From the NCBI GenBank assembly GCA_964367745.1, contig CAYIYK010000003.1:10248-74247 (forward strand): a stretch of DNA of 64,000 nt. The letters run 5' to 3'. The position numbers and the translations under genes were made by a program. Under the pieces are notes generated by a model. The model was not told the origin of the DNA. It did no database searches and saw only the letters and a list, made by a program, of their open reading frames with translations. Source of the stretch: an uncultured Candidatus Saccharibacteria bacterium. GTDB taxonomy: Bacteria; Patescibacteriota; Minisyncoccia; Phycocordibacterales; PALSA-1337. This document shows, piece by piece, positions 20,056 to 62,507 of the stretch (positions within the stretch are counted from its first letter, which is position 1; the number at the start of each line of letters is the position of its first letter).

Positions 20056-20724
20056 ATGAAAATCCTGATTATTGAAGACGATGTAGATATTTCCAGTTTC
20101 ATAAAGGACAATCTTACAGAGAGTACATATTCAGTTGAAGTCGCAAAGGATGGACCTGATGGATCATTTCTGGCCAGAACAAATTATCACGATGTTATCA
20201 TAATGGATTATTCACTTCCTTCAAAAGACGGAGTTTTGGTTTGTGAAGAGATAAGATCATCAGGTGTTGAAACACCCATAATATTCCTAACCGTACATAC
20301 AGACGTCAAAAAGAAGGTTAAAGCATTAGAAAAAGGTGCGGATGACTATATGACTAAACCTTTCTCTATCGAAGAGTTAAAAGCGAGGATACAAGCTCTA
20401 GTGCGTAGACCTAGGAAAATCGAAAGTCCTGTACTGATAGTTGGAGACCTAGTTTTGGATACACACAAAAGAACAGTTAGAAGAGGTGAAACACCTATTT
20501 ATCTAACTAGAAAGACTTATGATCTATTGGAATATCTTATGAGGAATAAAGGTATAGTGCTTTCAAGGGGATCTATAATGGAATATGTATGGAACTCAGA
20601 TAGTGATCCATTCTCAAATACCATAGAAGCACATATCCTAAACCTCAGAAAGAAAATCAATGTTAGAGGTAAAAAGGATATACTAAAGAATATTCCAGGT
20701 AGAGGTTATATTATGGGGTCCTAA
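20056..20724 (+). CDS. OmpR/PhoB-family response regulator (receiver plus winged helix); no kinase nearby
   Basis: MKILIIEDD, IIMDYSLPSKDG, YMTKPF and a C-terminal wHTH (LTRKTYDLLEYLMRN ... GRGYIM). Confidence 0.9.
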   Translation: MKILIIEDDVDISSFIKDNLTESTYSVEVAKDGPDGSFLARTNYHDVIIMDYSLPSKDGVLVCEEIRSSGVETPIIFLTVHTDVKKKVKALEKGADDYMTKPFSIEELKARIQALVRRPRKIESPVLIVGDLVLDTHKRTVRRGETPIYLTRKTYDLLEYLMRNKGIVLSRGSIMEYVWNSDSDPFSNTIEAHILNLRKKINVRGKKDILKNIPGRGYIMGS

Positions 20725-28507: not shown

Positions 28508-28537
28508 CCCTCACGTAAAAAGCGTGGGGGTCTTTTT
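28508..28537 (+). terminator. Intrinsic terminator after the island transporter
   Basis: An 8-bp stem CCCTCACG (28508..28515) / CGTGGGGG (28523..28530) with one G-U pair is followed by TCTTTTT. It overlaps the neuC stop codon. Confidence 0.65.
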
Positions 28538-29693
28538 ATTCAACAAAAGTCTTTTGAGTATAAAGAGGTACAGTAGCTATAACCTCTGCAATCTTTTTAC
28601 TTGTACCTTCTGCAAAATATAGACTTGATGATTCGTATCTGCCTTTTTTAACTTGTTTCTCTATTGCTTTCTTTATAGCTTTAATATCATGGTCTACAGT
28701 TACTACATTTTCTGCACTCAATCTTTTGAATTGTCTATTACCAATATTCACCACAGGCAAACCCATAAAAGAAGATTCCTTTATTCCAGCTGATGAATTC
28801 CCTATCAAACATAGACTGTTATTCAATAGCCAAATAAAATCCTTTGGACCCATATATCGCATGAAGCGTATTTTATGTCCTTTAACTTCATCTTTAAAAA
28901 TTCGAAGCTCATGTGATATATCTTCTGCACCGGCATCAGCATTTGGCCAAAACCAAAGTGTTGGAATCTTTAGACTATGTACAGCATCAAGGATTTTCTT
29001 TGTATTTTCATGTACATGCTTCACATCCATAATATCAGGATGATACATAACTATTAGATATCCTTTCTTTAGATCAAAAAGGGCCCCACTTCCTGTTTTC
29101 TTTATATCGAATTTATGTTTATTTTTTGCTAATTTTTGTACAACTTCTATTTCTGGACTACCAAAATTGAAAACGTGAGATTCTCTTTCTCCAAGTCTCA
29201 ATACTCTTTTTCTTGCTGGTTCATTTGTTGTAAAGTGAATATGAGAAAGTTTTGTGATAGCGTGTCTTACACTTTCATCTATTGATCCAGATACATCACC
29301 ACCTTCTATGTGTGCGATAGGTATAGATAAATATGCAGCTGCAATTGTAGCTGATAGAACTTCAAATCTATCACCTCTTACCACAACGACATCAGGTTTA
29401 ATCTGATTAAAAAGTGTAGTGAATTCTATTATTCCTAGTCCTGTTGTTTTTGCTTTTACGATTGTATCATTCCCTTCTAGATTGAAATGTAGTTCGTATA
29501 GCTTGTTATATCCGTCTTCCGTCAAAAGTTTTCTTATATCAGCAAGTTTTGAAGTATAACGAGACAATAAAGCTGTACCTCCAACTATTATATGTAGGTC
29601 AATATCCTTTCTTTTCTTTAGTTCTTCTAGAATAAGAAAGTTACGACTATAGTGTATGAAACTTGTAATAACAAAGCAGACTTTTCTCTTCAT
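28536..29693 (-). CDS. neuC: Hydrolysing UDP-N-acetylglucosamine 2-epimerase (NeuC-type)
   Basis: 385 aa. PDVVVVRGDRFE and IAHIEGGDVSGSIDESVRHAITKLSHIHF match the NeuC / hydrolysing-epimerase pattern. Confidence 0.8.
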   Translation of the reverse strand: MKRKVCFVITSFIHYSRNFLILEELKKRKDIDLHIIVGGTALLSRYTSKLADIRKLLTEDGYNKLYELHFNLEGNDTIVKAKTTGLGIIEFTTLFNQIKPDVVVVRGDRFEVLSATIAAAYLSIPIAHIEGGDVSGSIDESVRHAITKLSHIHFTTNEPARKRVLRLGERESHVFNFGSPEIEVVQKLAKNKHKFDIKKTGSGALFDLKKGYLIVMYHPDIMDVKHVHENTKKILDAVHSLKIPTLWFWPNADAGAEDISHELRIFKDEVKGHKIRFMRYMGPKDFIWLLNNSLCLIGNSSAGIKESSFMGLPVVNIGNRQFKRLSAENVVTVDHDIKAIKKAIEKQVKKGRYESSSLYFAEGTSKKIAEVIATVPLYTQKTFVE

Positions 29694-40366: not shown

Positions 40367-40425
40367 AACTCAATATACTATCATAAATTGTGATAACCAT
40401 ATATAATCTTAAAAAATACAATTTT

Positions 40426-41814
40426 ATGAAAAATATATCCAAAAAGGCTTTCATTATCATATTTTTAATAATCGTATCCGTAAATTTCCTTTATGCTATA
40501 TCATATAAAATAAAACCAGCTGTAGATGCTGAAGCATATGATGAAATAGCGACAAATATCGTTGAACACGAACAGTACAGATCGAGCTTTAACGTTCCTC
40601 TAGAACTTGATGGTTCAATATCAAGAATCGGTCCTGGATATGAATTGTTCTTAGCTACAAATTATCTATTCTTTGGAAAACATTTTTGGATTATTTGGTT
40701 ATTCCAAGCAATACTTTATGCTTTGACTATTGTAATGCTTGGCTTGATGAGTCTAAAGTTATTCCCTGTTTTAAATCAAAACACAAAAATCCTTTATGGT
40801 TCGATGATTGTCTTTGGTCTACTTATCGATATTATTCAGTTGAATGCAATGATAATGACCGAATCCCTTTTCCTATTTCTTCTAACTCTTTCTTTCTTTA
40901 TTTGGTCACAAATTTACAATCATGATCCAAAGATAAAATATGGACTGTGGATTATCCTTGGTTTCGTCTTGGGATTGTTAACCCTTACAAGACCAACAGG
41001 TCTTCTAGTTTTTGTTTTATTAAGTGGAGCAACTATATATAGGAAAAAACTTGGTTCAATACTTGCAATATGCCTTATTGCTATTCCTTTTATCTTAATC
41101 CAAGTTCCTTGGTTTGTAAGAAATTATCATGTATATAATCAATTCATTTTTCACTCTAGTGCTGATGGTCTGAATTTCTTAAGTGGCAACTATCCCGGTA
41201 ATCATGGAGAATTTACTTCTGATTTCCCTTTTTATAAAGAATTAAAAGAGAAATACCCATCCCCAGTAGAATTAAATAGTGAAGCAAAGAAGTGGTATAA
41301 AGATTTTGTATTACATCACCCTATTCAAGCTACAAAAATACTAATTGAAAAAGCTTTAATATTCTTTTCACTTACCAAAACTTCTGGCTTTTGGTTCCAT
41401 TATTTTGGAAAGACTGATCAGATACTTACGATCCTCATATCAATATTTCAAAACTTTATAATACTTGGAAGTATTATATTGTATGGAACGATGGTTGTTA
41501 AAAGATGGATAAATAAACAATTCCTTCTACCAGACATATTCCTTGCTTCAACTTTTGTAGTATTAACAGTAACTCCAATAATTTCAGTTATAGCAAATAG
41601 ACATAGACTTCCACTAGTTATAATGTCTCTGCCTTTATTCGTCTATGTTGCATATATAATAAAAAATAACTTTAGAAAAATGAAATGGGAAATCGCTATT
41701 ACGATTCTTATCCTTATCGCAAGTACAGGTTTTGATCTATTCTTACAATTCGATAAATTCAAATCAAAGATACATTCAGTGAATAAAAATCCAGCAGAAA
41801 CAGTAACTAAATAA
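40426..41814 (+). CDS. GT-C fold membrane glycosyltransferase (ArnT/PMT, GT39/83-like)
   Basis: The track start at 40390 is a GTG; ATG 40426 (MKNISKKAF) is more likely. The acidic first-loop motif is DAEAYDEIA, followed by multiple TM helices. Confidence 0.65.
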   Translation: MKNISKKAFIIIFLIIVSVNFLYAISYKIKPAVDAEAYDEIATNIVEHEQYRSSFNVPLELDGSISRIGPGYELFLATNYLFFGKHFWIIWLFQAILYALTIVMLGLMSLKLFPVLNQNTKILYGSMIVFGLLIDIIQLNAMIMTESLFLFLLTLSFFIWSQIYNHDPKIKYGLWIILGFVLGLLTLTRPTGLLVFVLLSGATIYRKKLGSILAICLIAIPFILIQVPWFVRNYHVYNQFIFHSSADGLNFLSGNYPGNHGEFTSDFPFYKELKEKYPSPVELNSEAKKWYKDFVLHHPIQATKILIEKALIFFSLTKTSGFWFHYFGKTDQILTILISIFQNFIILGSIILYGTMVVKRWINKQFLLPDIFLASTFVVLTVTPIISVIANRHRLPLVIMSLPLFVYVAYIIKNNFRKMKWEIAITILILIASTGFDLFLQFDKFKSKIHSVNKNPAETVTK

Positions 41815-41817
41815 TTT

Positions 41818-43476
41818 ATGATTAAGAAAATTATAAAACACCCATTAAGTTATATATTACTTTTTGCTTTTTTAATTCGTATAGTAATGATCAAATACGG
41901 TTTGCCATTCTGGCTATACAATGACGAACCACCTTTTGTACTTACAACACTGAAGATGTTCCAACTAAAAACACTGTTACCAGTGTTACATGAAGCTGAT
42001 TTCAAGCCTTTCATGTATTACCCTCCTTATATTAGTTATCTATATATTCCCTTCTTTTTATTTTCTATAGCACTATCATGGATTGGTTTTGATGGAAACC
42101 TTAGTGAGTTACAGAATGTCTTGGCTAGTGATCCTTCTATATTTTTCATAACAGCGAGAGTAATAATGATTTTTATTAGTATATTAACAATTTATTTAAT
42201 ATATAAAATAACTCAATCATTAACTCAAAGTAAGACAGCATCACTTTATTCTGCAATCCTTTCTTCAACAAGTTTAATGTTTATAAGTCTTTCAATCACA
42301 GGCAAACACTGGGTACCAATACTTTTCTTTTATACACTTTGTCTTTTTATACTTACACGTCCGAATTGGTCTATTAAAAAGAGATATATATTGTCAGCAG
42401 TTACTATTGGTATCGGAACTGGTGTAGGTACTGTGGTGATTCTTTTTTCAGTTGTTATTTTCCTTTGGTATATAACGTACGATAAAGTAAGTATGAAAGA
42501 AAGTTTGACTAGCTTACTTATGTACAAACTAGGTTTTATCGTAGTTATTTTATCTTTTATTCCAGTTCTTCTTTATCCTGCAAGTCTTGGTTTCGTACCA
42601 GACACAACATTACATGGAGGTAAAACTCTTTTAGGATTCATAACTAGTCCTTTTGTCTTTCCATTCCCTTTTATCGCCACGGAACCAGTTTTGGTATTAC
42701 TTAGTCTTATTGGTTTATATCTCGGTTTTAAAAAATACAAACCATTCTATATAACATCTATCATTTTTACAGTGTTTTACAGTATGATATTCTATGTATT
42801 TTTCAGATTCGAATACCGTTTCCTTTTACCTCTTGTATTGTTCTTAATAGTTGGATCAGCAATAGGAATAAATGAGATTAGGAATAAATACCCAAACAAA
42901 TATTCTAAAGCATTTATTTATCTAATTCTTCTAATCCCAATATTATTCTCTTTGAGACTTAGTTATCTTGGTTATGTAAATGATTCAAGAATAAAAGCAA
43001 AAGAATGGTTGAATGCCAATACCGAAGCTGATGACAAAGTTATCGTCTATGCAAACCTTATGAGAATAGCGAATAATAAAAATGGAATATTGGAACAAGA
43101 ATTCATCGATTCTAGATCATTGAGGACAAATGATAAAAACATGTTGAATATTCGAGACGGTTTGATAAAAGAGAAGACATTCCACGCTTTAAATCTATAT
43201 ACAGTTGAGAACGACAATTTCTACAAAATGATTGATGTTTATGCAAAAAAGAATGGCTATAAATATCTAATATTTAGTAAAAAAGATTTCTTAGATAAAT
43301 CTGAACAGTTTGAGTATGTTAAAAATCTTACAAAAGATGCTAAACTTATGGCAAGCTATGGTAATAATGAGAGTAACTATTCCCTATCAAAAACAGACAT
43401 TGGACCTAATTTATTACCTTTCTTTAGAATAAATGAATTCGGACCAGAGATAGAGATATATAAATTGAATAACTAA
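41818..43476 (+). CDS. GT-C fold membrane glycosyltransferase with a C-terminal soluble domain
   Basis: 552 aa. The first-loop motif is LYNDEPPF. About 11 TM helices are followed by a ~180-aa soluble tail. Confidence 0.6.
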   Translation: MIKKIIKHPLSYILLFAFLIRIVMIKYGLPFWLYNDEPPFVLTTLKMFQLKTLLPVLHEADFKPFMYYPPYISYLYIPFFLFSIALSWIGFDGNLSELQNVLASDPSIFFITARVIMIFISILTIYLIYKITQSLTQSKTASLYSAILSSTSLMFISLSITGKHWVPILFFYTLCLFILTRPNWSIKKRYILSAVTIGIGTGVGTVVILFSVVIFLWYITYDKVSMKESLTSLLMYKLGFIVVILSFIPVLLYPASLGFVPDTTLHGGKTLLGFITSPFVFPFPFIATEPVLVLLSLIGLYLGFKKYKPFYITSIIFTVFYSMIFYVFFRFEYRFLLPLVLFLIVGSAIGINEIRNKYPNKYSKAFIYLILLIPILFSLRLSYLGYVNDSRIKAKEWLNANTEADDKVIVYANLMRIANNKNGILEQEFIDSRSLRTNDKNMLNIRDGLIKEKTFHALNLYTVENDNFYKMIDVYAKKNGYKYLIFSKKDFLDKSEQFEYVKNLTKDAKLMASYGNNESNYSLSKTDIGPNLLPFFRINEFGPEIEIYKLNN

Positions 43477-44240
43477 TGAAAATCACGATAATAATACCAA
43501 CATACAATGAGGGTGAAGCAATCGGTAATCTTCTCGATGCGGTTATTGCTGAGACAAAGGAAATAAAGAATCATATATTTTCTATTCTTATCGTTGACGG
43601 GAATTCAAAAGACAATACTCAAGAGAATGTTAGAAACAAATCAAATAAATACAACAATATAAAACTAATTGTTGAAAAAAGTAAATGCGGTCTTGGGAAT
43701 GCGTATCTAGAAGGAATGAATTATGCAATAAACAATCTTGGTGCGGATGCCTTCATGGAATTTGATGGTGATTTCCAGCACAATCCAAAAGATATAAAGA
43801 AGTTGGTAGAAAAACTAGATCAAGGATACGAATATATAATCGGATCAAGATATATAAAAGGAGGAACGATTCCAAAAGAATGGCCTTGGTACAGGAAAGC
43901 TATTAGTTCATTCGGAAATATCGTTATAAGTATAGGATTAAGACTTGGTATAAATGATGCAACTTCAGGATTCAAACTATCAAGAGTTGGTAAATTCAAA
44001 GACTCGATGCCATTAAAACAAGGACAATTGATCTCTCTTCGACATGCATATAAGATCCATTTTCTTTATAATATAGTAAAAGCTGGAGCAAAAACAGTAG
44101 AAGTTCCCATAGAATTCTTGAATCGAAATAAAGGAATATCAAAGAGTACTTTCGAAGATATTATAGAATCATTAAGAGTTGTCTTTGTTTTGATTATCAA
44201 AGGTAGAAACAACAGCATTGTTTTTAAAAATAAATCTTGA
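43476..44240 (+). CDS. Polyprenol-phosphate glycosyltransferase (GT2; GtrB / Dpm1 / ArnC-like)
   Basis: IIIPTYNEGEAI, VDGNSKDNT, FDGDFQHNP and GSRYIKGG. Confidence 0.85.
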   Translation: MKITIIIPTYNEGEAIGNLLDAVIAETKEIKNHIFSILIVDGNSKDNTQENVRNKSNKYNNIKLIVEKSKCGLGNAYLEGMNYAINNLGADAFMEFDGDFQHNPKDIKKLVEKLDQGYEYIIGSRYIKGGTIPKEWPWYRKAISSFGNIVISIGLRLGINDATSGFKLSRVGKFKDSMPLKQGQLISLRHAYKIHFLYNIVKAGAKTVEVPIEFLNRNKGISKSTFEDIIESLRVVFVLIIKGRNNSIVFKNKS

Positions 44241-44603
44241 ATAGATAAAGTAACTACTGATAGCAAGTAAACCTGAAGCTAGTATTTGACTTAGGAAATA
44301 GTGAATATGGAAGTGATCTACAAATAAATACATTAAAAGTGTATTCACACCAAGATTTACGCTTGAGACAATAAAATAAATAGTTGTTTGTTTGTGAACA
44401 TCTTCGATACTTTTATCCTGAAATGTCCAGAACTTTTGCAATATAAAACTAACAGAGAATGCTATTAGGAAAGCAAGAATTGCTGAAATCAAATAATTTA
44501 TCTTAAAAATATCAACAAAAATAGCTAGGAAGGCCAAGTTAACAACCGCTGCAGTTCCACCAGATATTATATATTTTATTGTCTTAATTATTTTGGTTCT
44601 CAT
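44172..44603 (-). CDS. gtrA: GtrA-family membrane protein
   Basis: 143 aa with 4 TM helices. YIISGGTAAVVNLAFLAIF ... SFILQKFWTF is the GtrA pattern. Confidence 0.8.
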   Translation of the reverse strand: MRTKIIKTIKYIISGGTAAVVNLAFLAIFVDIFKINYLISAILAFLIAFSVSFILQKFWTFQDKSIEDVHKQTTIYFIVSSVNLGVNTLLMYLFVDHFHIHYFLSQILASGLLAISSYFIYSRFIFKNNAVVSTFDNQNKDNS

Positions 44604-53948: not shown

Positions 53949-55823
53949 TTACTTTACCTTAAGTACATCACGAAGTACATCTTCAGGAACCTCTCTTTTT
54001 GTGTCACTTTTTTCGTGATGATTAGCATGACTTTTATGTATTTCATTTGGTTTATGGTCACTTGAAGTATTTTGATGATTCGAATGATTTGAACCATCTG
54101 AATCTTTTTTTACATGCTCGTCCTTATGTGCCAAAACTGATGCCAAAGCACTCTTTAATTCATTTATTCTTTGTGGATGTGCATCTTTATGATGATTATG
54201 AGCCTTAGGTGTATTTGTTAGAGAATTCAGAGATACAGACTTTAACTTAGGAAGATTTGGTTGGGGTTTTGGATAATTTGATTGTTGCACATGATTTTGG
54301 ACACTTGGCTGTACAGGTGCTTGGACTGATTGTTGAGGTGGTTGCTGAATAGGCTGTTCTGCGACAATTGGCTTTGGTGGAGGTGGAGGTATATGTGCAG
54401 GTGCAGGTGTGGGTGCAACTGTAGCTACTGGTTTGGGCGGTTGTGTATTTGTTGCAGGAGTACTAGAACCATTCTGAGTAGAATTCGAAGCGGTAGATGC
54501 ACCGGGCGTAGGATTCTTTGGAGTTACAACAGGCTTTATTGGTGCAAGCCATTCTTCGATTTTCTTTTCTACTTCTGGTCTCTTACTAGCAAACTGTCTT
54601 CTTGATTCTTCAATCACAGCAAGAGCATTGGACTTCTCTGGTAAAGGAATGGGTGGCAATGTTGTAGCAGAAAATGGTGATGAACTTATACCATCAATCA
54701 TCAGTTTCAAATATATTTGAAATATTCCGAGATTAACAATATCTTCAGCGGTGAACTGTGGTGCGAATTCTTTTTCCAAAACTTCTGCATCATAAGCGCC
54801 AACACGGAACACGATCATTGTTCCAACGTTTCCAAAAACCGCAGCTCTAACCTCTTCTTCCATTTGCTCTATATACTGGTGAGCCATAGTAAGATTCAGT
54901 TTATATTTTCGAGCTTCAGAGAGAATATCTGCAAAAGATTCATTTGCAAATGATTGGAATTCGTCTACGAATAGATAGAAGTTTGGAAGTTTTTTTATAA
55001 CATTATCTGACACATCAGCACGAGAAAGTGCAGCGAGATATATCTTGGTTATTATCATTCCACCCAAAAGATTTGCATTCGATTCTCCGATTCTTCCTTT
55101 TGATAAGTTAACTATAAATATCTTACTCTTATCCATCATTTCACGGAGATTGAAAGATGATTTTGGTTGACCGATCATATTTCGTATCAGAGCATTCGCA
55201 GTGAACTGACCGATTTTATTTTGTATTGCAGGAACAGCTTCGGCAGCCATTCTTTCTGTATAGTTTGCAAATTCTTGTACCCAGAATGATTTTACTGATG
55301 GATCAGTAACACAGGCCACTACTTGCTTCCTGAATTCTTTATCAGAAAGCATTCTATTTACCCCAAGCAGGGTTGCGTCAGGATATTCAAGTAAAGCCAA
55401 AAGAGTATTTGTAAGAATATACTCCATTCTCGCTGACCAAGCATCTTGCCAGATCTTTTTGAATGTACTCATAAGACCAGATACAACTAGATGTCTTTTG
55501 TCATGATCAACGTTTTCAAGTACGTTGAATGATATAGGATAGTCCATATCAAAAGGTGCAAAATACACAACGTCTTGTCTTCTATTCTCAGGAATATATT
55601 CTAGTAGCAATTCCGCTGTCTTACCGTGAGGGTCGAGGAAGGCCATACCTTCCCCATTTTTTATATCTTGCACAGCCATGTTTTCAAGTAGAGTAGATTT
55701 ACCCATACCTGTCTTACCGATCACATAAACGTGCTTTGTTCTATCTTTGGCTTTAATACCAAAACTTACCTTTTTATTTCTGGCATCAGTTTGACCAAAA
55801 TATGTAATCTTTTCTTCATTCAT
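53949..55823 (-). CDS. VirD4/TraD-like (type IV coupling-protein-type) P-loop ATPase with no TM anchor and a Pro/Gln/His-rich tail
   Basis: Walker A is VIGKTGMGKSTLL and Walker B is NFYLFVDEFQSF. LTMAHQYIEQM is also present. The N-terminus is soluble. The last ~200 aa are low complexity (PPPPPKP, QQPPQQ, HNHHKDAH, HKSHANHHEK). Confidence 0.7.
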   Translation of the reverse strand: MNEEKITYFGQTDARNKKVSFGIKAKDRTKHVYVIGKTGMGKSTLLENMAVQDIKNGEGMAFLDPHGKTAELLLEYIPENRRQDVVYFAPFDMDYPISFNVLENVDHDKRHLVVSGLMSTFKKIWQDAWSARMEYILTNTLLALLEYPDATLLGVNRMLSDKEFRKQVVACVTDPSVKSFWVQEFANYTERMAAEAVPAIQNKIGQFTANALIRNMIGQPKSSFNLREMMDKSKIFIVNLSKGRIGESNANLLGGMIITKIYLAALSRADVSDNVIKKLPNFYLFVDEFQSFANESFADILSEARKYKLNLTMAHQYIEQMEEEVRAAVFGNVGTMIVFRVGAYDAEVLEKEFAPQFTAEDIVNLGIFQIYLKLMIDGISSSPFSATTLPPIPLPEKSNALAVIEESRRQFASKRPEVEKKIEEWLAPIKPVVTPKNPTPGASTASNSTQNGSSTPATNTQPPKPVATVAPTPAPAHIPPPPPKPIVAEQPIQQPPQQSVQAPVQPSVQNHVQQSNYPKPQPNLPKLKSVSLNSLTNTPKAHNHHKDAHPQRINELKSALASVLAHKDEHVKKDSDGSNHSNHQNTSSDHKPNEIHKSHANHHEKSDTKREVPEDVLRDVLKVK

Positions 55824-55875: not shown

Positions 55876-57441
55876 TTAATTATGACTGTATATTGTATAT
55901 AAATTATCACTATATACCCTCTTCAAATTTGAGTATTTTAATAAATCATTTCTATTATCCTGTATTACATATTGAATATCGTATTTTTCTAGATTTTTTA
56001 ATATCCTTTCTTGTGTGTTTGAACTCATAACATCATGAATTCTCTCTGGCTTTGATATCCACTGCCCCGCATATAATGTCCAAAAAACATAATTTCTTGA
56101 ATAAAGCGGTATATATTGTGAAAGAGATTCCGGTGCCATAAATATTGAATCTTTAGAATTCGACTTTATCCAATTAAGTATGGGGACATATCTTTGAACA
56201 TAAATAGTATAATCTAAAGAGTTTTTATATGAATTAATTTGAATCAAAATAGAATTAAAAATACAAAGAATAGACAGCAGGTATATTATTGCAATACAAA
56301 TTTTTGATTTTATATTGTCAGACAGAAATTCCTTTATAAAATAGACTATTGAGATAACCAAGACTGGACTGAATACATACATTTCGAAATGACCATATTG
56401 CATTATAAGTCCAGTTATAACATGTTCATTTCTAGTTAGAAAACAAGCAGATATTAGGCCTGAAATAAATATAAATTCATCATTAATAATTTTATTCTTC
56501 TTATAAACCAAAAAGAGCAGCGTAGAACAGACTATAAAAATTGATATTCCAAACAAACTAACATCAGGAATATGACTCATTCTTAAATATTCATGTGGGA
56601 TGGTTAAATAGTACTCATGAGACATTAGATTCACAATCTGATAAAAGACTGGAATAGCCAATATTATACCTACTGATAAACTGACAACAAGACCCTTAAG
56701 TCTGTCAAATTCTTTTCTAAAAAAATAAATCCCAATAAAAACTAGATTTAACACAGTTAAATATGCATATGTAAAGAAATAAACATAGAATGACAAACCA
56801 AAGAAAATACCGAGGATGATATACCACAGTCTAGTATTCTTTTTAATTGCTAAATACAAAATATTTAAATATAAGAAAAAATACAAAGAACTGAATTGAG
56901 GATTAACAGGTCTAGAGAATATAAGGAATTGATCCTCATCAGTTACAAACCTAAACAGATTCAATAAATCATGAATATTTAACAGATCAACGAAATTCAA
57001 GAGATTATACCCAAGCACAATAAACAGTGACCCGAGTATAGATATGTGAATATTCCTAGTAATTCTATCGAGCAGCAAAAAAGACAGAAGGAAGATAATG
57101 ATCGGCAACACAAGTTCGTACAAAATCTTTAAATCCAGCGTATCTATACTTAATATGATACCTGGCAGTGCCAATATCATAGACGAAATAGATGAATCAA
57201 AGTGTGGGAAATTATAGCCATACTCTTTTATAAAAGGATTACAATTAAACGTACAACCCATGTATGCTCCTTGAATTTTATTCAGATATAGTGACTCTGC
57301 ATCGGTATTCATTATTGGTATACCACTAAAGTTAGTACTGTGAATAAATAAAATATTTGGCAATACATAAATAACACCGCAAACTAGAGAGATGATAAGG
57401 ATCGATAGAAATTTCTTAGAAAACATAAATAAATTATACAT
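55876..57441 (-). CDS. Polytopic membrane protein of unknown function immediately downstream of pilA (possibly GT-C-like)
   Basis: The track start is TTG 57444; ATG 57441 is more likely. About 11-12 TM helices are followed by a ~110-aa soluble C-terminus. The acidic motif NTDAESLYL follows the first TM, as in GT-C enzymes. Confidence 0.6.
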   Translation of the reverse strand: MYNLFMFSKKFLSILIISLVCGVIYVLPNILFIHSTNFSGIPIMNTDAESLYLNKIQGAYMGCTFNCNPFIKEYGYNFPHFDSSISSMILALPGIILSIDTLDLKILYELVLPIIIFLLSFLLLDRITRNIHISILGSLFIVLGYNLLNFVDLLNIHDLLNLFRFVTDEDQFLIFSRPVNPQFSSLYFFLYLNILYLAIKKNTRLWYIILGIFFGLSFYVYFFTYAYLTVLNLVFIGIYFFRKEFDRLKGLVVSLSVGIILAIPVFYQIVNLMSHEYYLTIPHEYLRMSHIPDVSLFGISIFIVCSTLLFLVYKKNKIINDEFIFISGLISACFLTRNEHVITGLIMQYGHFEMYVFSPVLVISIVYFIKEFLSDNIKSKICIAIIYLLSILCIFNSILIQINSYKNSLDYTIYVQRYVPILNWIKSNSKDSIFMAPESLSQYIPLYSRNYVFWTLYAGQWISKPERIHDVMSSNTQERILKNLEKYDIQYVIQDNRNDLLKYSNLKRVYSDNLYTIYSHN

Positions 57442-57442
57442 C

Positions 57443-57467
57443 AAAAAACACCCTATGGGTGTTTTTT
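57443..57467 (-). terminator. Intrinsic terminator directly after pilA
   Basis: AAAAAACACCC-tat-GGGTGTTTTTT is a perfect hairpin with a U-tract on the minus strand. It ends 1 nt before the downstream ATG. Confidence 0.7.
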
Positions 57468-57495
57468 GATGTAACCGTATTGTTACCAGATTGTA

Positions 57496-57975
57496 TTAAG
57501 ACGCAGGGCAAGCTGTAGCATTTATTGCAAGAACAGTTGTAACTTGTCTTGAAGCGCCTGTATTATCTACACACCATCCAACTGGTGTACCACTCACTGA
57601 AGCCTTCAGCGGAGCCCAGATAACCCATGTTGCTGATGCATCGTGACATTGTGCAGTGTTCCAAGTTGAAGCAGTTCCATCAGCAAATACCGCAGCTGTT
57701 CCTCCGAAAGCGGCTTGAGCAGCCATTACACTGTCTCCAATAACATTAGCACCTGTTAACGCACATACGGCATCATAAACATTAGTTCCATTATCATAGA
57801 ACAATTCTGCCTCAGCTCTAGCACCTGCTAGGTTTGACTTTATAGCTGTATCAGCTCCCTTTGAACGTGCTGTGTTTAGTGAAGCCAAAACAACTGATGA
57901 CAATATACCGATAATAGCGATAACTACAAGCAACTCAATCAATGTAAAACCTTTTTGCAAATATGATTTCTTCAT
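57496..57975 (-). CDS. pilA: Type IV major pilin
   Basis: The prepilin leader and N-methylation motif read MKKSYLQKG/FTLIELLVVIAIIGIL. Four Cys are present (two potential disulfides). The C-terminus is ...INATACPAS. Confidence 0.9.
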   Translation of the reverse strand: MKKSYLQKGFTLIELLVVIAIIGILSSVVLASLNTARSKGADTAIKSNLAGARAEAELFYDNGTNVYDAVCALTGANVIGDSVMAAQAAFGGTAAVFADGTASTWNTAQCHDASATWVIWAPLKASVSGTPVGWCVDNTGASRQVTTVLAINATACPAS

Positions 57976-58015
57976 AACGAAATAATTAACTTAATAAATA
58001 AAACTAATAATTCAA

Positions 58016-58044
58016 CTTATACACGTAAGTATATCAAACCTCAA
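58016..58044 (-). promoter_or_regulatory. Sigma-70-type promoter for pilA
   Basis: On the minus strand: TTGAGG (58044..58039), a 17-nt spacer, then TATAAG (58021..58016). Confidence 0.45.
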
Positions 58045-58085: not shown

Positions 58086-59294
58086 TTATTGAGCACTTGC
58101 AACGTTGTATATAGGTATAAGAACTGAAGCAAGCAGTGTAGCAACACCAAGTCCCAAAAGGACGATCATAGCGGGTTCAATAAGATCGACTAGTGCATCT
58201 ACAGCAGTTACTACTTCTCTAGAGTAAAATCTCGACAAAGTCTTCAATATTGCACCGAGTTCTCCTGATTCTTCTCCCACTCTCATCATTTGAATCATAA
58301 TTCCGGGGATTTCACCGTTACCTGAAAGTGCTTCTGATACCGTCTTTCCTGCTTTTACTGAATCTACAGCATCAGAAAGTATTTTTTTATAAATACTATT
58401 GTTTATAACAGATGAAGTTAGTTCTAGTGAACGAATCATTGGAATTCCTGACATAAGCATAGTATTCATATTGTCAGAAAGTCTTGCCCAATATAGTTTC
58501 CTAAAAAGATTACTCATATAAGGGATACTAAGTTTGAATTGATCAAAAACGATTGTGCCACTTGGAGTTCTTATATATCTAATTAAAATAAATCCAAGCA
58601 CCACAACGATCGCAACAACAATAAAGCCTTTTTCTACCAAGAAATTACTTATACCCAGAACAACTTTTGTATATATTGGAATATCTTGTCCAGACTCAGT
58701 CAAAATTGTACTGATCTTTGGAATAACCATAGTGAACATAAGTATCATCACGGTTATAAATGTCATCATAACGAAAGCTGGATATATAAGAGCACTCTTG
58801 GCTTTTGAAACAAGTTCATATGTTCTATCTAGATAGTCAGCAAGGTAAGCAAAAGTCTCATTTAGTTTACCTGACTCTTCTCCTGCTTTTACCATACTTA
58901 CATAAAATTCTGAGAATACCTTTGGATGTTTCTCTAGAGCGCTTGATATCTGACTTCCCGCTTGTAGATCATCGGCGATCTGGATTAGCTTTGTACCCAA
59001 AACTTTATTATCACATTCAGCGCCTAAGAGTCTAAAGATTCTCAGAGCCGAAACCTGTGCTTCAAAAAGTGTTGCTAGTTGTCTTGAAAGTATAACTATC
59101 TCTTTATTTGACACTCTATCAAGAAAAGATAGGTTCATTGAAAGAAGTCCTCCCTTTTTATCTGCTTCATTTATAGAAGTAATAACCAGGCCTCTTCTTT
59201 GCAAAGAAGCAATAGCAATATCGACATTCGCAGCATCTATAGAGCCTTTTTGTTGTGTTCCCGCTTGATCTACTGATTGATAATTAAATAACAT
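58086..59294 (-). CDS. pilC: Type IV pilus platform protein PilC (GspF family)
   Basis: 402 aa with a duplicated GspF-type domain (SALRIFRLL ... MVKAGEESGKL; LSDNMNTMLMSGIPM ... MMRVGEESGEL) and 3 TM helices. Confidence 0.92.
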   Translation of the reverse strand: MLFNYQSVDQAGTQQKGSIDAANVDIAIASLQRRGLVITSINEADKKGGLLSMNLSFLDRVSNKEIVILSRQLATLFEAQVSALRIFRLLGAECDNKVLGTKLIQIADDLQAGSQISSALEKHPKVFSEFYVSMVKAGEESGKLNETFAYLADYLDRTYELVSKAKSALIYPAFVMMTFITVMILMFTMVIPKISTILTESGQDIPIYTKVVLGISNFLVEKGFIVVAIVVVLGFILIRYIRTPSGTIVFDQFKLSIPYMSNLFRKLYWARLSDNMNTMLMSGIPMIRSLELTSSVINNSIYKKILSDAVDSVKAGKTVSEALSGNGEIPGIMIQMMRVGEESGELGAILKTLSRFYSREVVTAVDALVDLIEPAMIVLLGLGVATLLASVLIPIYNVASAQ

Positions 59295-59302
59295 ATAAAA
59301 TA

Positions 59303-60361
59303 TTATATCATTCTCTCAAGATTTTTTGGATTCGCAGAATTTATATAAGCATTTTCAGGACTAATCTCACCTCTTCTTACAAGTTCTGCCAAAGAACGAT
59401 TCATATCGATCATACCTTCTGCAGAACTAGTCTCTATAACAGTATTTATTTCATGTATTCTTTTTTCTCGGATTAGGTTTGCAACCGCAGAATTGTTTAT
59501 CAGAAGTTCATATGCTGGTATAAGTCCTCCTGAAATTCTAGGAATCAATCTTTGAGAGAAAATACCTGTCATACTTCCTGCAAGTTGAACTCTAATTTGA
59601 TCTTGTTGAGAGGCTGGAAAAGAGTCGATGATACGGTTTATAGTCTGAGAAGCAGTATTTGTGTGTAGTGTTGAGAATACCAAGTGACCTGTTTCAGCAG
59701 CAGTAACCGCTGTAGATATAGTCTCTGGATCTCGCATCTCGCCCACCAAAGCAACGTCTATATCTTCTCGAAACATTGCGATCAAAGCATTCTTAAAGTC
59801 TGGAGTATCTATTCTGACCTCTCTTTGATCTATAATAGATTTCTTTGATTCATAAATATATTCAATAGGATCCTCTATCGTCATAATGTGCTCATTTCTA
59901 GTTTGATTTATTATTTCAATTAAAGAAGCCAAGGTTGTACTTTTTCCTTGTCCGATCGGTCCTACGCAAAGGAAGAATCCTTGTTGTTTTCTAGTAAAAG
60001 ATTCAAGAATTGGTGGAAGATTCAACTCTGTAAGAGTCTTTATTTGTTTTGGAATAAGTCTAAGGGCAATAGAGATGAGGCTTTGTCTATAATACGCATT
60101 TCCTCGGAATCTTGCATTGGTCAAACTATAAGAAAAGTCTACGTCTTTGTCTTTATCAAAAAGTTCTTTATTTTCATCAGAAAGAAAAGTATTTATATAA
60201 CCTTTCATATCTGCAGCGGTGATTATAGGTTTTTTTGCAAGAGGTATAAGGCTTCCAGATACTCGAATAAGTGGGTGTCTACCTTCAGAAAGATGAAGGT
60301 CTGATGCACCCTCGTTTATCACGGTTGTAACAAGTTCTTCTATATCCCTTTTATAATCCAT
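59303..60361 (-). CDS. pilT: Twitching-motility retraction ATPase PilT
   Basis: 352 aa with ASDLHLSEGRHPLIRVSG, Walker A GPIGQGKSTT, GEMRD and HLVFSTLHTN. Confidence 0.92.
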   Translation of the reverse strand: MDYKRDIEELVTTVINEGASDLHLSEGRHPLIRVSGSLIPLAKKPIITAADMKGYINTFLSDENKELFDKDKDVDFSYSLTNARFRGNAYYRQSLISIALRLIPKQIKTLTELNLPPILESFTRKQQGFFLCVGPIGQGKSTTLASLIEIINQTRNEHIMTIEDPIEYIYESKKSIIDQREVRIDTPDFKNALIAMFREDIDVALVGEMRDPETISTAVTAAETGHLVFSTLHTNTASQTINRIIDSFPASQQDQIRVQLAGSMTGIFSQRLIPRISGGLIPAYELLINNSAVANLIREKRIHEINTVIETSSAEGMIDMNRSLAELVRRGEISPENAYINSANPKNLERMI

Positions 60362-60381
60362 ATAATTTAATTATGAAAAAA

Positions 60382-60768
60382 CTATTTTTTAATATTTGAA
60401 CAAATCTTCTCAACTTCAGACATAACTTCAGAAGGAATTGTGGTTGCTTTTATTATATAACCATCAACATTCAAAGCTTTTGCTCTAGCAATATCATCAG
60501 GAAGACCTTGATTTGTTAGCATGATTATAACTGATTTCTTTACCAAACCTTCTTTTCTTAGATTTGAAAGTAATTCGATACCATCCATTCCTGGCATAAC
60601 AATATCTAAAAGTAGAATATCAGGTTCCAATCCATCTCTTATTAACTTCAACGCTTCTTCTGTATCTGCTGATGTGTGGACGATAAAATCATTCTTTGAA
60701 AACTTCAGAGAATACATATCGAGTAGAAACTTGTCATCATCTACAAAAAGTATTGAGCGTTGTTTCAT
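60382..60768 (-). CDS. Stand-alone CheY-like receiver protein embedded in the pilus operon
   Basis: ILFVDDD, ILLLDIVMPGMDG, IIMLTNQ and GYIIKA. All canonical receiver positions are present and there is no output domain. Confidence 0.9.
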   Translation of the reverse strand: MKQRSILFVDDDKFLLDMYSLKFSKNDFIVHTSADTEEALKLIRDGLEPDILLLDIVMPGMDGIELLSNLRKEGLVKKSVIIMLTNQGLPDDIARAKALNVDGYIIKATTIPSEVMSEVEKICSNIKK

Positions 60769-60791
60769 AGATATATTATATCATAGTTAAA

Positions 60792-62507
60792 TTAAAGCTT
60801 ATTCACTTCTTCAAACGGTATTTTCTTTTCAAATGCTTTTAGCATTGCATCTTCTTTCATCGTAATCATCCCCTTTTGTCTCAACAATCTACTTATCTCC
60901 AATTCAGTCGGGCTTTTCAAAATAACATTTTCTATCTCTTTATCCATTTTAAATATTTCAAATATTGCCATACGTCCTCTAGTACCCTTTGGACAATCTG
61001 GAGTCGGCTCTATTCCATAAACTGTATCTGAAAAAGGTATTTCTTTTTTATATTGTTCTGGAAGATCTGAGAATTGCTTATCGATCATCATTTTTATACT
61101 TCCTTCAACCGGTATTGGTTTACCAGCACCTGGAGGGAAAGTTGAAACAAGTCTTTGGGCAATAGCTAGGATAAGAGTCGGAGCAATAAGGTATGGATCT
61201 ACTCCCATGTCTATCAGACGAGGAATAACACCAGCAGAGTTGTTAGTGTGTAGTGTTGAGAATACCAAGTGACCAGTAAGCGCTGCTTGCACAGCAAGCT
61301 GCGCAGTCTCTTTGTCTCGGATCTCTCCCACCATGATTATATCCGGGTCTTGTCTAAGAGTTGTTCTAAGTCCTGATGCAAAAGTATAACCAATTTCAGG
61401 GTGTACTTGTGATTGACTCACGCCGTCCATATTGTATTCAATAGGATCTTCGAGAGAAAGAACGTTCATACTCTCTCTATCAACTTCGTTTAGCATAGAA
61501 TAAAGTGTTGTAGATTTTCCTGAACCTGTCGGACCTGTGATTAGAATAAGTCCATAAGGTCTTGTAATTGCATCTTTTATATAAGCGAGGTTTTTCGGGG
61601 TTAGACTCATATCGTCTATCTTTTTTACTCCCTTTTCCTGATCGAGGATACGCATCACAACCTTCTCACCATAATATGCCGGGAAAGTTGAAACTCGGAA
61701 GTCGATTTTTCTTCCATCAATACGCGCAGAGAATCTACCGTCTTGAGGTTTTCTCTTTTCATCAAGCTTCATATTACATAAAACTTTAATACGAGCCACA
61801 ACAGCATTGTGCACTTGTGGAGGCAGAACTAGACTGGTATTTAGAGTACCGTCCACACGGAATCGGACACGAACCTTATCTCTCATATGTTCGATATGAA
61901 CGTCGGAAGCATTACCTTCTGTAGCGTATCGAACTATAGTAGCTACGATCTTTATAACTGGAGCATCTTCTATAATAACTGCATCACTTTTCTTTTCAGA
62001 CTTATTTTGTGCCAAATCTAGAGTTGCAGCTTTGTCTACAGATAGTACAGATTCAAGTTCAGTAAGAGCCTTTGATACTTCTCCACCAATTCCTTTGTAT
62101 GATTCAATTACTTTTTGGAAATCATCTATAGTGATAAGAAAAACTTTGTATGGAATATTTTTCTTTGAGGCAATGAAGTTTAGAGCATCTCTAGCTTCGA
62201 TATTGTCTGGGTCTACAATTCCAACCTCGAGTGTACTGTCATGAATTCCAACTGGTACGAATTTATAATGTTTCGCTGATTCTTCTGGAATATAATCCAA
62301 TGCTTCAAAAGGAACCATAGTATCCCCTAGGGCTTTTACAGGAATATTCAGGAACTCTCCTCTTGCAGTGAGAATATCTTCAGGTCTTATACCCTTTTCA
62401 ATTAAAATTTGATCCAAAGCCTCACCCTTTGCAGCGAGTTTTTTTATTTCTGCAACATCATCTTTGGTTATAAGATTTTTATTTAATAAAATATCAACAA
62501 TACTCAT
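60792..62507 (-). CDS. pilB: Type IV pilus assembly ATPase PilB (GspE family)
   Basis: 571 aa with an N-terminal GspE-N domain, Walker A GPTGSGKSTT, GEIRD and HLVFSTLHTN. Confidence 0.95.
   Translation of the reverse strand: MSIVDILLNKNLITKDDVAEIKKLAAKGEALDQILIEKGIRPEDILTARGEFLNIPVKALGDTMVPFEALDYIPEESAKHYKFVPVGIHDSTLEVGIVDPDNIEARDALNFIASKKNIPYKVFLITIDDFQKVIESYKGIGGEVSKALTELESVLSVDKAATLDLAQNKSEKKSDAVIIEDAPVIKIVATIVRYATEGNASDVHIEHMRDKVRVRFRVDGTLNTSLVLPPQVHNAVVARIKVLCNMKLDEKRKPQDGRFSARIDGRKIDFRVSTFPAYYGEKVVMRILDQEKGVKKIDDMSLTPKNLAYIKDAITRPYGLILITGPTGSGKSTTLYSMLNEVDRESMNVLSLEDPIEYNMDGVSQSQVHPEIGYTFASGLRTTLRQDPDIIMVGEIRDKETAQLAVQAALTGHLVFSTLHTNNSAGVIPRLIDMGVDPYLIAPTLILAIAQRLVSTFPPGAGKPIPVEGSIKMMIDKQFSDLPEQYKKEIPFSDTVYGIEPTPDCPKGTRGRMAIFEIFKMDKEIENVILKSPTELEISRLLRQKGMITMKEDAMLKAFEKKIPFEEVNKL

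Follow-up and report, generated by a model that had tools for sequence, protein, structure and literature searches.

A GT-C-fold membrane protein encoded beside the gene for the major type IV pilin in a Patescibacteria bacterium, a candidate pilin glycosyltransferase

The pilin operon and its downstream neighbour

The window, which is the whole 64,000-nucleotide stretch of Candidatus Saccharibacteria DNA that was analysed, contains a type IV pilus operon on its reverse strand. The pilus machinery is encoded upstream of the pilin gene, at 58086..62507. By their Pfam matches the products are PilB (60792-62507; MshEN and T2SSE), a response regulator (60382-60768; Response_reg), a PilT-like ATPase (59303-60361; T2SSE) and PilC (58086-59294; T2SSF). 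The pilin gene lies directly 3' of pilC, as in all related operons, and the pilus gene order of the window is matched in L001, L002, L005, L107, L109, and L110.

The pilin gene (57496..57975, reverse strand) encodes a major type IV prepilin of 159 aa. Its translation matches N_methyl in Pfam (E 2e-9) and IV_pilin_GFxxxE in NCBIfam, with a leader, MKKSYLQKG, that precedes a mature N-terminus starting FTLIELLVV. This is the sole open reading frame within the window that has a prepilin motif. The protein has four Cys residues and ends in INATACPAS, which places Ser159 three residues past the last Cys. The CPAS ending and the two sequons listed in the initial annotation are both there, the sequons being N62-G-T64 and N152-A-T154. 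When AF2 is given the pilin sequence alone the model is poor (pLDDT 50), and it reveals only that helix alpha1 ends near residue 61.

An intrinsic-terminator-like hairpin separates the pilin gene from the next gene (57437..57473, reverse strand; terminator scan and RNA folding). A perfect hairpin had been annotated at 57443..57467, but this is only the core of a larger structure, which runs from 57473 to 57437 and consists of 17 perfectly paired bp around a loop of 3 nt, with A-tract and T-tract arms. Its folding energy of -24 kcal/mol (z = -5.5) was equalled by 0 of 200 shuffled sequences. The stem takes in the ATG of the next gene at 57441. Could translation of that gene depend on melting of the hairpin, with the GGGTG arm acting as its Shine-Dalgarno (SD) sequence? 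This idea from the initial annotation was rejected. There is no SD sequence in the other loci and the hairpin is separated from the start codon there; the two abut only in the window and in its 82% relative, L007. The position itself is kept, with non-homologous hairpins in 8 of 9 related loci. A terminator 3' of the pilin gene would leave the downstream enzyme far scarcer than its presumed pilin substrate.

The next gene (55876..57441, reverse strand) encodes a polytopic membrane protein of 521 aa, or 516 aa if translation starts at an alternative ATG at 57426. The secondary structure of its AF2 model consists of 11 transmembrane (TM) helices and an external C-terminal alpha/beta domain of approximately 90 aa, and the distribution of Lys and Arg in the short cytoplasmic loops agrees with this topology. 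The layout of pilin gene, terminator and polytopic membrane protein is real and is kept in related genomes.

Fold and family of the membrane protein

The fold of the 521-aa protein was assigned from its AF2 model (pLDDT 89), Foldseek matches and a homolog alignment. At E <= 0.001 Foldseek gives 26 matches, every one of them a GT-C enzyme. The hallmarks of the GT-C_A class are present, namely the N-terminal TM module and a long external loop 1 with juxtamembrane helices. Loop 1 contains the motif NTD47-A-E49-SLY52 (D47-x-E49-x-x-Y52), which is external by topology. The initial impression that this acidic first-loop motif resembles those of GT-C enzymes was correct. In an alignment of 25 homologs with as little as 20% identity to the window protein, E49, Y52, R177, P181, and H351 are invariant, and D47 (21/25), E73, N180, and N338 are nearly so. 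Every one of these residues is located in an external loop.

Fold comparison is the only approach that was informative. The protein has no family match at E <= 1 in Pfam or NCBIfam, and a sequence-profile search of the PDB gave nothing. At that threshold Pfam STT3 is not matched, nor are PMT and PMT_2 (PF02366, PF13231), and Pfam finds no TPR; PMT_2 is matched by just 1 of the 25 homologs (E 3.5e-5). The Wzy_C domain (PF04932) is absent from the protein (Pfam, E <= 1) and from the families matched by the 25 homologs, in agreement with the earlier failure to see a Wzy_C block by eye. Nor is there an O-antigen-ligase-type fold among the structural matches listed. The WWDYG motif is also absent, the topologically equivalent segment being IFMAPESLSQYIPLYS (APESL), and across the 25-sequence alignment external loop 2 has neither a conserved DxD/ExD nor any invariant acidic residue.

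With a profile of the family, 3,091 cluster representatives are matched (E <= 1e-3), and an hmmsearch with it finds no paralog among the open reading frames of the window. The 552-aa PMT_2-like protein of the window belongs to a different GT-C family. Judged by its predicted structure, the 521-aa protein is a GT-C-fold glycosyltransferase of a large and nameless Patescibacteria family.

Gene context and lipid-linked sugar partners

Gene context was read from the loci of the homologs. Among ten relatives with at least 41% identity, the window counted, the GT-C gene is the first gene 3' of the major pilin gene in nine (window, L007, L001, L002, L003, L005, L107, L109, and L110). These pilin-linked relatives share 41-83% identity with the window protein. 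What lies further downstream differs: L001, L002, L107, and L109 have minor pilin and peptidase genes there, and the window, L003, and L005 have a TraG-like gene together with GT4 genes. The exception is L108 (45% identity), where the GT-C gene and a GT2 gene sit between ruvA and a Mur ligase gene and pilus genes are absent within 5 kb of the GT-C gene. In a more distant relative, L010 (31% identity), a pair of GT2 and GT-C genes is sandwiched by two copies of the pilin gene, with its orientation reversed. Relatives with 30% identity or less (L006, L012-L025) are found in general glycan clusters without pilins, which suggests that the ancestral acceptor of the family was probably something other than pilin.

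The gene is not a standard part of the operon. It occurs in 0 of 80 related pilin loci that lack the GT-C clade, which makes it a rare pilin accessory gene. Most of the 43 loci with at least 2 kb of sequence downstream of the pilin gene have the order pilin, often a second pilin, a protein of approximately 260 aa with 6-8 TM helices, and pilin-like genes. Comparison with annotated operons suggests that the 260-aa protein is probably the prepilin peptidase. Since this usual order does not include the GT-C gene, the latter is an accessory gene inserted where tfpO and tfpW are found in Pseudomonas.

The next clue concerns the sugar donor. The window encodes a GT2 protein of 254 aa (43476..44240, forward strand; Pfam Glycos_transf_2) that is a probable polyprenyl-phosphate sugar synthase of the GtrB/DPM1 kind. 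Its best NCBIfam matches, all under the cut-off, are PpgS, PgfS, AglJ, and ArnC; these are mostly polyprenyl-phosphate sugar synthases. The adjoining gene (44172..44603, reverse strand) encodes a small GtrA-family membrane protein of 143 aa (Pfam GtrA_DPMS_TM, E 4e-25), a probable flippase for lipid-linked sugars. Related loci bring such partners next to the GT-C gene. A GT2 gene of approximately 240 codons lies beside it in L003, L005, L010, and L108, and the window GT2 is an ortholog of this partner, with 54-68% identity to the GT2 that L003, L005, and L108 encode convergently with the GT-C gene. The GT-C gene of L107 is followed by a GT2-GtrA fusion gene, both inside the pilus operon, and the GtrA part of this fusion shares 34-36% identity with the window GtrA. 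Furthermore, among 10 family representatives scanned, picked chiefly for a family match that begins well into the protein, an N-terminal GT2 is fused to the family domain in 6 and GtrA in 2. No GT2 gene was found near the GT-C gene within the flanks read of L001, L002, and L109. In the window the GT2 gene is 11.6 kb from the GT-C gene and shares 1 nt with the end of the gene for the PMT_2-like GT-C protein (41818-43476), which it may serve instead of the 521-aa enzyme.

The initial annotation had pointed to the neighbouring 33-kb glycan cluster, and the presence there of Wzx and of a Wzy_C-TPR protein is borne out by Pfam. The cluster encodes five GT4 and two GT2 proteins, methyltransferases, GtrA, the PMT_2-like protein, Wzx and GT9, together with a NeuB-cytidylyltransferase fusion and a 748-aa Wzy_C+TPR protein (20711-22957; Pfam Wzy_C, 60.9 bits). 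A large glycan cluster begins just past the neighbouring TraG-like gene in the window, L003, L005, and L007, and there is none nearby in L001, L002, L107, and L109. The GT2 and GtrA fusions and the GT2 genes beside the GT-C gene speak against an O-unit from the window cluster as the donor. They make it likely that a small GT2 supplies the donor as a monosaccharide linked to polyprenyl phosphate.

Acceptor, mechanism and alternative explanations

What would the enzyme modify? Gene neighbourhood, which is the whole of the evidence on this point, indicates that the acceptor is probably pilin. The site within pilin was originally proposed to be the C-terminal Ser, by analogy with TfpO. This proposal fails on conservation, the very test that had been attached to it. 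The 10 linked pilins have the endings CPAS (two), C, CPAN, CP (two), CG (two), CI, and CVE. A C-terminal Ser is thus found in 2 of 10, both from close relatives, and pilins without a downstream GT-C gene can likewise end in CPAS or CPAT (L092, L076, L105). Its conservation and co-occurrence led to the rejection of the C-terminal Ser as the acceptor. Of the pilin features picked out at the start, the DNGT sequon (N62-G-T64; codons at 57784..57792, reverse strand), just past the N-terminal helix, is the better lead. An N-x-S/T sequon no more than 12 residues past alpha1 is present in 7 of 10 GT-C-linked pilins vs. 7 of 41 unlinked ones. Fisher's test gives p = 0.002, or 0.015 with near-duplicates collapsed, for what is a post hoc comparison of small samples that ignores kinship. 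The sequon therefore tracks with the GT-C gene as a correlation only, and the loop past alpha1 that contains N62-G-T64, rather than the C-terminal Ser, is a candidate acceptor site. Ser+Thr richness does not mark out the linked pilins, whose content shows no difference from that of unlinked ones (0.20 vs. 0.21, p = 0.76).

The closest known analogue, going by published descriptions, is TfpW, the pilin D-arabinofuranosyltransferase of Pseudomonas aeruginosa group IV strains (Pa5196/PA7). TfpW is a GT-C enzyme encoded directly 3' of pilA that needs a GtrA-like partner (bioRxiv 10.1101/2020.04.19.049825). Like the 521-aa protein it is polytopic with approximately 11 TM helices, its gene immediately follows that of the major pilin, and its periplasmic loop 1 bears an acidic motif (DDX, where the window protein by eye reads D-A-E). 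It uses a polyprenyl-phosphate-linked monosaccharide, as is proposed here, and its acceptor sites, Thr64 and Thr66, are in the alpha-beta loop region (bioRxiv 10.1101/2020.04.19.049825). There are also differences. TfpW has 646 aa and a C-terminal periplasmic TPR, whereas the window protein has 521 aa and the approximately 90-aa alpha/beta domain without TPR. The loop 4 motif of TfpW, YX6PFX7P, is only partial in the window protein (Y285-x6-P292, with P292 in 24/25 and Y285 in 13/25 sequences). No arabinose pathway of the TfpW type (DprE1/DprE2/PRPP-transferase) was identified in the window, where the partner is a DPM1/GtrB-type GT2. Finally, the TfpW host is Pseudomonas and not a Patescibacteria bacterium.

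A wider comparison is with the three-component logic in which a GT2 synthase makes a polyprenyl-phosphate sugar, a flippase of the GtrA family turns it over and a GT-C enzyme transfers the sugar (PMC11127046). Such GtrA/GtrB/GtrC-type systems glucosylate the O-antigen of Shigella and Salmonella, glycosylate lipoteichoic acid or transfer pentofuranoses, and the same three parts occur here as neighbours or fusions. However, their acceptors are polysaccharides or teichoic acids, whereas the conserved neighbour here is a protein, pilin, and unlike them the present family lies outside the Pfam and NCBIfam models. Compared with PMT/GT39, PMT_2 and ArnT, the window protein has no PMT or PMT_2 match, lacks MIR domains and differs in its C-terminal domain.

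We give somewhat better than even chances to the proposal that the clade is a pilin glycosyltransferase from a three-component (GtrA/GtrB/GT-C-type) system, present as an accessory gene 3' of the pilin gene. In this scenario the GT2 (43476-44240) would transfer one sugar from a nucleotide sugar to polyprenyl phosphate at the cytoplasmic face, and the GtrA-type protein (44172-44603) would bring the lipid-linked sugar to the outer face. The GT-C enzyme would then move the sugar onto membrane-anchored pilin ahead of pilus assembly, perhaps with the acidic pair D47/E49 of external loop 1 as catalytic base and with R177 and H351 holding the lipid phosphate. The most serious alternative, which we still regard as unlikely, is that the enzyme modifies a different acceptor (a cell-wall glycopolymer, a lipid or an S-layer protein), in the way of ArnT, AftA, and GtrC-type enzymes, and that the site 3' of the pilin gene is merely a permissive insertion spot past a terminator with no functional tie. 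The distant family members in pilin-free glycan clusters, the L108 pair away from any pilus gene and the large cluster past the TraG-like gene in the window, L003, L005, and L007 would all fit. What does not fit is that the post-pilin position is kept at 41-83% identity despite differing downstream neighbours, that the L010 gene lies between pilin genes even with its orientation reversed, and that in L107 the GT-C gene and the GT2-GtrA fusion are placed between the pilin and prepilin peptidase genes.

Several other explanations assume that pilin or the pilus is involved. In archaea, both type IV pilins and archaellins are N-glycosylated by AglB. STT3, AglB, and PglB are among the top structural matches of the window protein, and its C-terminal domain resembles that of AglB-S2. 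Perhaps the protein is an oligosaccharyltransferase that moves a cluster-made, Wzx-flipped glycan en bloc to the Asn of pilin N-x-S/T sequons. This is improbable. The protein is much shorter, has APESL in place of WWDYG, lacks a conserved DxD/ExD in loop 2 and has no Pfam STT3 match even at E <= 1. In addition, its fused and neighbouring GT2 and GtrA proteins point to monophosphate-linked single sugars, and L001, L002, L107, and L109 have no nearby glycan cluster. A long shot that we rate a shade higher is a compact non-STT3 N-glycosyltransferase that places one sugar from a polyprenyl monophosphate on Asn62 of the alpha1-end sequon. The TfpO-like layout described in the initial annotation would mean an O-oligosaccharyltransferase like TfpO/PilO that attaches the O-unit of the adjacent cluster to Ser159. 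TfpO, PilO, and PglL are likewise polytopic and they glycosylate pilin, the order of pilA, terminator and polytopic protein gene is that of P. aeruginosa group I strains, and Ser159 follows the last Cys at a short distance. However, these enzymes belong to the Wzy_C fold family and use an undecaprenyl-PP-oligosaccharide en bloc, whereas the window protein has no Wzy_C domain and is of a different fold class. The window also has a genuine Wzy_C+TPR protein (20711-22957), to which any PglL/TfpO-type activity would be better assigned. With the C-terminal Ser so poorly conserved in the pilins of the clade, the TfpO/PilO-like model appears largely refuted and very improbable. Even less credible is a non-catalytic pilus accessory or assembly protein on a retained GT-C scaffold, for which the precedent is TfpY and TfpZ, whose pilin accessory genes occupy the same position and do not encode glycosyltransferases (PMC11841053). 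E49, R177, and H351 are at GT-C active-site positions and stay invariant in 25 sequences at identities down to 20%, and a lipid-sugar synthase is consistently near the GT-C gene. The 521-aa protein most likely decorates pilin with sugar in the manner of TfpW and not in that of TfpO.

We found no description of a pilin-linked GT-C protein in CPR in the literature. With no Pfam or NCBIfam model for the window protein and 3,091 representatives, a definition of the parent family would be useful and would better annotate many CPR glycan loci. If the single-sugar transfer to Asn62 were true, it would be a route of protein N-glycosylation with neither WWDYG nor an oligosaccharide donor, an N-glycosylation module would be built into the Patescibacteria type IV pilus operon, and the parent family, with more than 3,000 clusters and without a Pfam model, would rank among GT-C enzymes as a major branch that has gone unrecognised.

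For attachment to their hosts and movement on them, the main tool that Patescibacteria (CPR) are known to have is the type IV pilus. A recent study of Saccharibacteria pili describes pilin glycosylation as a prediction still to be confirmed (PMC11623550). The locus described here offers a concrete candidate enzyme set (GT-C, GT2, and GtrA) and a candidate acceptor site for it. In Pseudomonas, pilin glycosylation by an adjacent accessory gene guards against pilus-specific phages (10.1101/150227). By analogy, the rare and patchily distributed accessory gene that occupies this position in CPR points to a similar arms race, or to the tuning of host recognition, in these bacteria.

The pilin operon and the adjacent membrane protein

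The major type IV prepilin gene (57496-57975, minus strand) encodes 159 aa and is identified from its ORF, its translation and matches to the Pfam N_methyl and NCBIfam prepilin domains. Its product has the leader MKKSYLQKG, a mature N-terminus FTLIELLVV, four Cys residues and the tail INATACPAS. pilC (58086-59294, minus strand) precedes it, and genes for a PilT-like ATPase, a response regulator and PilB lie further upstream in the operon (all by Pfam). No other ORF in the window has a prepilin cleavage motif, and its 64 kb yielded no minor pilin gene.

The layout proposed in the initial annotation, a pilin gene, a hairpin and a polytopic 521-aa protein beside a glycan cluster, is borne out in the sequence. 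The terminator-like hairpin directly 3' of the pilin gene is larger than first described, with a perfect 17-bp stem (57473..57437, minus strand) and an energy of -24 kcal/mol (z = -5.5 against shuffled sequences). A terminator hairpin comes after the pilin gene in 8 of 9 loci, and the hairpins are unrelated in sequence. The pattern fits strong expression of the substrate gene and weak expression of the enzyme gene behind it. The suggestion that the hairpin arm supplies a Shine-Dalgarno sequence finds no support, as at other loci the hairpin and the start codon are apart and there is no such sequence.

The next ORF after the hairpin (55876-57441, minus strand) encodes the 521-aa protein. Its ATG at 57441 sits inside the terminator stem. 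The sequence TATAAT-ttattt-ATG (57426-57441, minus strand) points to a second ATG at 57426 (M6). A start there may be the true one; the protein would then be as long as homologs P0002 and P0003 (516 aa). Most loci (the window, L001, L007, L107, L109 and L110) carry a TATAAT hexamer 6-9 nt 5' of a start codon, between the hairpin and the start of this gene. This suggests a separate promoter and a leaderless or near-leaderless mRNA, although in AT-rich sequence it is possibly chance.

No Pfam or NCBIfam model matched the 521-aa protein at E <= 1, and a profile of 25 homologs gave no meaningful match to PDB sequences. A word-indexed search returned 26 homologs, from Patescibacteria wherever a source is named. 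The AF2 model built on the homolog alignment is confident (pLDDT 89, pTM 0.90), and all 26 Foldseek matches at E <= 0.001 are GT-C enzymes (STT3, DPY19, AglB, PglB, AftA, ArnT and ALG12). The predicted fold is thus unambiguously GT-C. O-antigen-ligase (Wzy_C) structures were absent from the matches listed. The model has 11 TM helices and, on the outer side, a ~90-aa C-terminal domain, with an N-in topology matched by Lys/Arg in short cytoplasmic loops and by acidic external loops. E49, Y52, P79, F172, R177, P181, Y221, G344, H351 and P359 are invariant across the 25 homologs. The polar residues among them, together with the nearly invariant D47, E73, N180 and N338, all fall in external loops, matching the location of GT-C active sites. 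The TM7-TM8 loop is modelled with low confidence (pLDDT 60-69) and recalls the mobile substrate-gating loops known in PglB and ArnT. In an exhaustive profile search, 3,091 cluster representatives scored E <= 1e-3, and 955 of these E <= 1e-30. The family is large, and is missed by the Pfam and NCBIfam models.

Linkage to the pilin gene

Among relatives with at least 41% identity and readable context, the GT-C gene is the first after the major pilin gene in the window and in L007, L001 (= L011), L002 (= L008), L003, L005, L107, L109 and L110. What follows it varies: L001, L002, L107 and L109 have minor pilin and prepilin peptidase genes there, and the window, L003, L005 and L007 have genes for a TraG/VirD4-like ATPase and GT4 enzymes. 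In the lineage of the window, the place of the minor pilin and peptidase genes is taken by a TraG-like gene and the glycan cluster. Pilin adjacency is the only constant. In the more distant L010 (31% identity), a GT2 and GT-C pair lies on the opposite strand between two pilin gene copies. These copies are nearly identical, and pilC and a TraG-like gene adjoin (L010 1145-5333).

The main rival explanation is that the enzyme modifies a non-pilin acceptor. The exception to the linkage is L108, where ruvA and a Mur ligase gene flank the GT-C gene and its GT2, and relatives at or below 30% identity are found in glycan clusters without pilins. Set beside the nine loci with the gene directly after the pilin gene, this alternative appears unlikely.

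How common is the arrangement? A metagenome scan from the pilin side, using the pilin alignment, covered 80 loci (45-70% identity), none of which carries a member of the GT-C family. The 43 loci with at least 2 kb downstream mostly have the pilin, often a second pilin, a ~260-aa protein with 6-8 TM helices (probably the prepilin peptidase, by comparison with annotated operons) and more pilin-like genes. The GT-C gene is therefore a rare accessory insertion, exactly where Pseudomonas has tfpO or tfpW.

The window's TraG/VirD4/TraD-like coupling ATPase (624 aa, 53949-55823, minus strand) has a long Pro/Gln/His-rich C-terminal tail and a weak match to CedD. No other conjugation genes were seen nearby. 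Its relatives lie beside the pilin and GT-C unit in L003, L005, L007 and L010 (phmmer E 1e-215 to 0), and it is a possible partner of the pilus in DNA translocation.

Probable sugar donor and glycan cluster

Eight of the best 150 family representatives have N-terminal extensions, namely six GT2 domains of the polyprenyl-phosphate sugar synthase type (P0035, P0097, P0111, P0114, P0118 and P0151) and two GtrA domains (P0058 and P0158). Such fusions are the mark of three-component extracytoplasmic glycosylation, in which a GT2 loads a single sugar onto polyprenyl phosphate, GtrA flips the product and a GT-C enzyme transfers the sugar (PMC11127046). They would also be handy single-polypeptide targets for biochemistry. 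L003, L005 and L108 have a gene for a ~240-aa GT2 convergent with the GT-C gene, L010 has one upstream, and in L107 a GT2-GtrA fusion gene lies 3' of the GT-C gene. The window has a GT2 54-68% identical to those of L003, L005 and L108 (43476-44240, plus strand), with an adjoining GtrA gene (44172-44603). The best NCBIfam matches of this GT2, all below cut-offs, are PpgS, PgfS, AglJ and ArnC, mostly polyprenyl-phosphate sugar synthases. From the fusions and the GT2 neighbours we infer a monophosphate-linked single sugar as donor, and not an O-unit from the 33-kb cluster.

That cluster encodes five GT4 and two GT2 enzymes, methyltransferases, GtrA, a PMT_2-like GT-C, Wzx, GT9, glycerophosphotransferases, a UDP-GlcNAc 2-epimerase (28536-29693, minus strand), a 626-aa NeuB-cytidylyltransferase fusion (24432-26312, minus strand) and a 748-aa Wzy_C and TPR protein. 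By their annotation, the epimerase and the NeuB fusion indicate nonulosonic (sialic-like) acid synthesis. The 748-aa protein (20711-22957, minus strand) matches Wzy_C at 60.9 bits and carries TPR repeats at its C-terminal end. Lipopolysaccharide synthesis is not known from the organism's group. This protein is a candidate PglL-type general O-oligosaccharyltransferase, polymerase or ligase and, if any is, the real Wzy_C-type candidate for en bloc protein glycosylation. Another GT-C candidate, unrelated to the first (41818-43476, plus strand, 552 aa; weak PMT_2 match, E 9e-5), overlaps the start of the GT2 by 1 nt at 43476 and is preceded by a 474-aa protein with no family match (40390-41814, plus strand). 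The GT2/GtrA pair may serve two different GT-C enzymes.

Proposed acceptor site and function

The initial annotation pointed to the C-terminal Ser of the pilin by analogy with TfpO, and conservation of this Ser was a test that it set beforehand. The tails of pilins linked to a GT-C gene are CPAS (only in the window and its 82% relative), C, CPAN, CP, CG, CI and CVE. Among related pilins without the gene, CP is commonest, and CPAS and CPAT are also present. The Ser is thus not conserved among linked pilins and also occurs on unlinked ones, so that this part of the proposal fails its own test. Ser and Thr content does not differ between linked and unlinked pilins. N-x-S/T sequons number 23 against 16.0 expected from composition in linked pilins (n = 9), and 46 against 64.2 in unlinked pilins (n = 42). 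The first 12 residues past helix alpha1 include a sequon (YDN-x-T; in the window, N62-G-T64) in 7/10 linked pilins but 7/41 of those unlinked (Fisher p = 0.002; 0.015 with near-duplicates collapsed). Because this contrast is post hoc, comes from small samples and ignores kinship, it is a lead only. TfpW and PglL act on residues of the same general alpha-beta loop region (bioRxiv 10.1101/2020.04.19.049825).

Pilin glycosylation by an adjacent enzyme remains plausible, with a GT-C enzyme in that role; the TfpO and C-terminal Ser model was wrong, as Wzy_C is absent and the Ser is not conserved. The lack of Wzy_C likewise distinguishes the protein from PglL. STT3 is excluded by the absence of WWDYG and of a loop-2 DxD, and PMT by Pfam thresholds. 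The enzyme fits the logic of GtrABC systems, but its presumed acceptor is a protein. The system would work most like TfpW, a GT-C enzyme encoded directly 3' of pilA that uses a lipid-phosphate monosaccharide donor and a GtrA-like helper (bioRxiv 10.1101/2020.04.19.049825). However, the protein lacks a TPR domain and differs in its loop-1 motif and predicted donor pathway. It cannot be firmly placed in the TfpW family, the differences being with the published description of TfpW and not with its sequence.

On balance, we lean towards a TfpW-like pilin glycosyltransferase of a new GT-C family, in which the GT2/GtrA pair would feed the GT-C enzyme and the latter would glycosylate the pilin of the adjacent gene. 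We found no description of such a pilin-linked GT-C gene in Patescibacteria (CPR), and a study of the Saccharibacteria pilus explicitly left pilin glycosylation unconfirmed (PMC11623550). Two readings of the sequon signal are conceivable: O-linkage, through the +2 hydroxyl, or N-linkage, through the Asn. The second would mean N-linkage by an enzyme outside the STT3 type.
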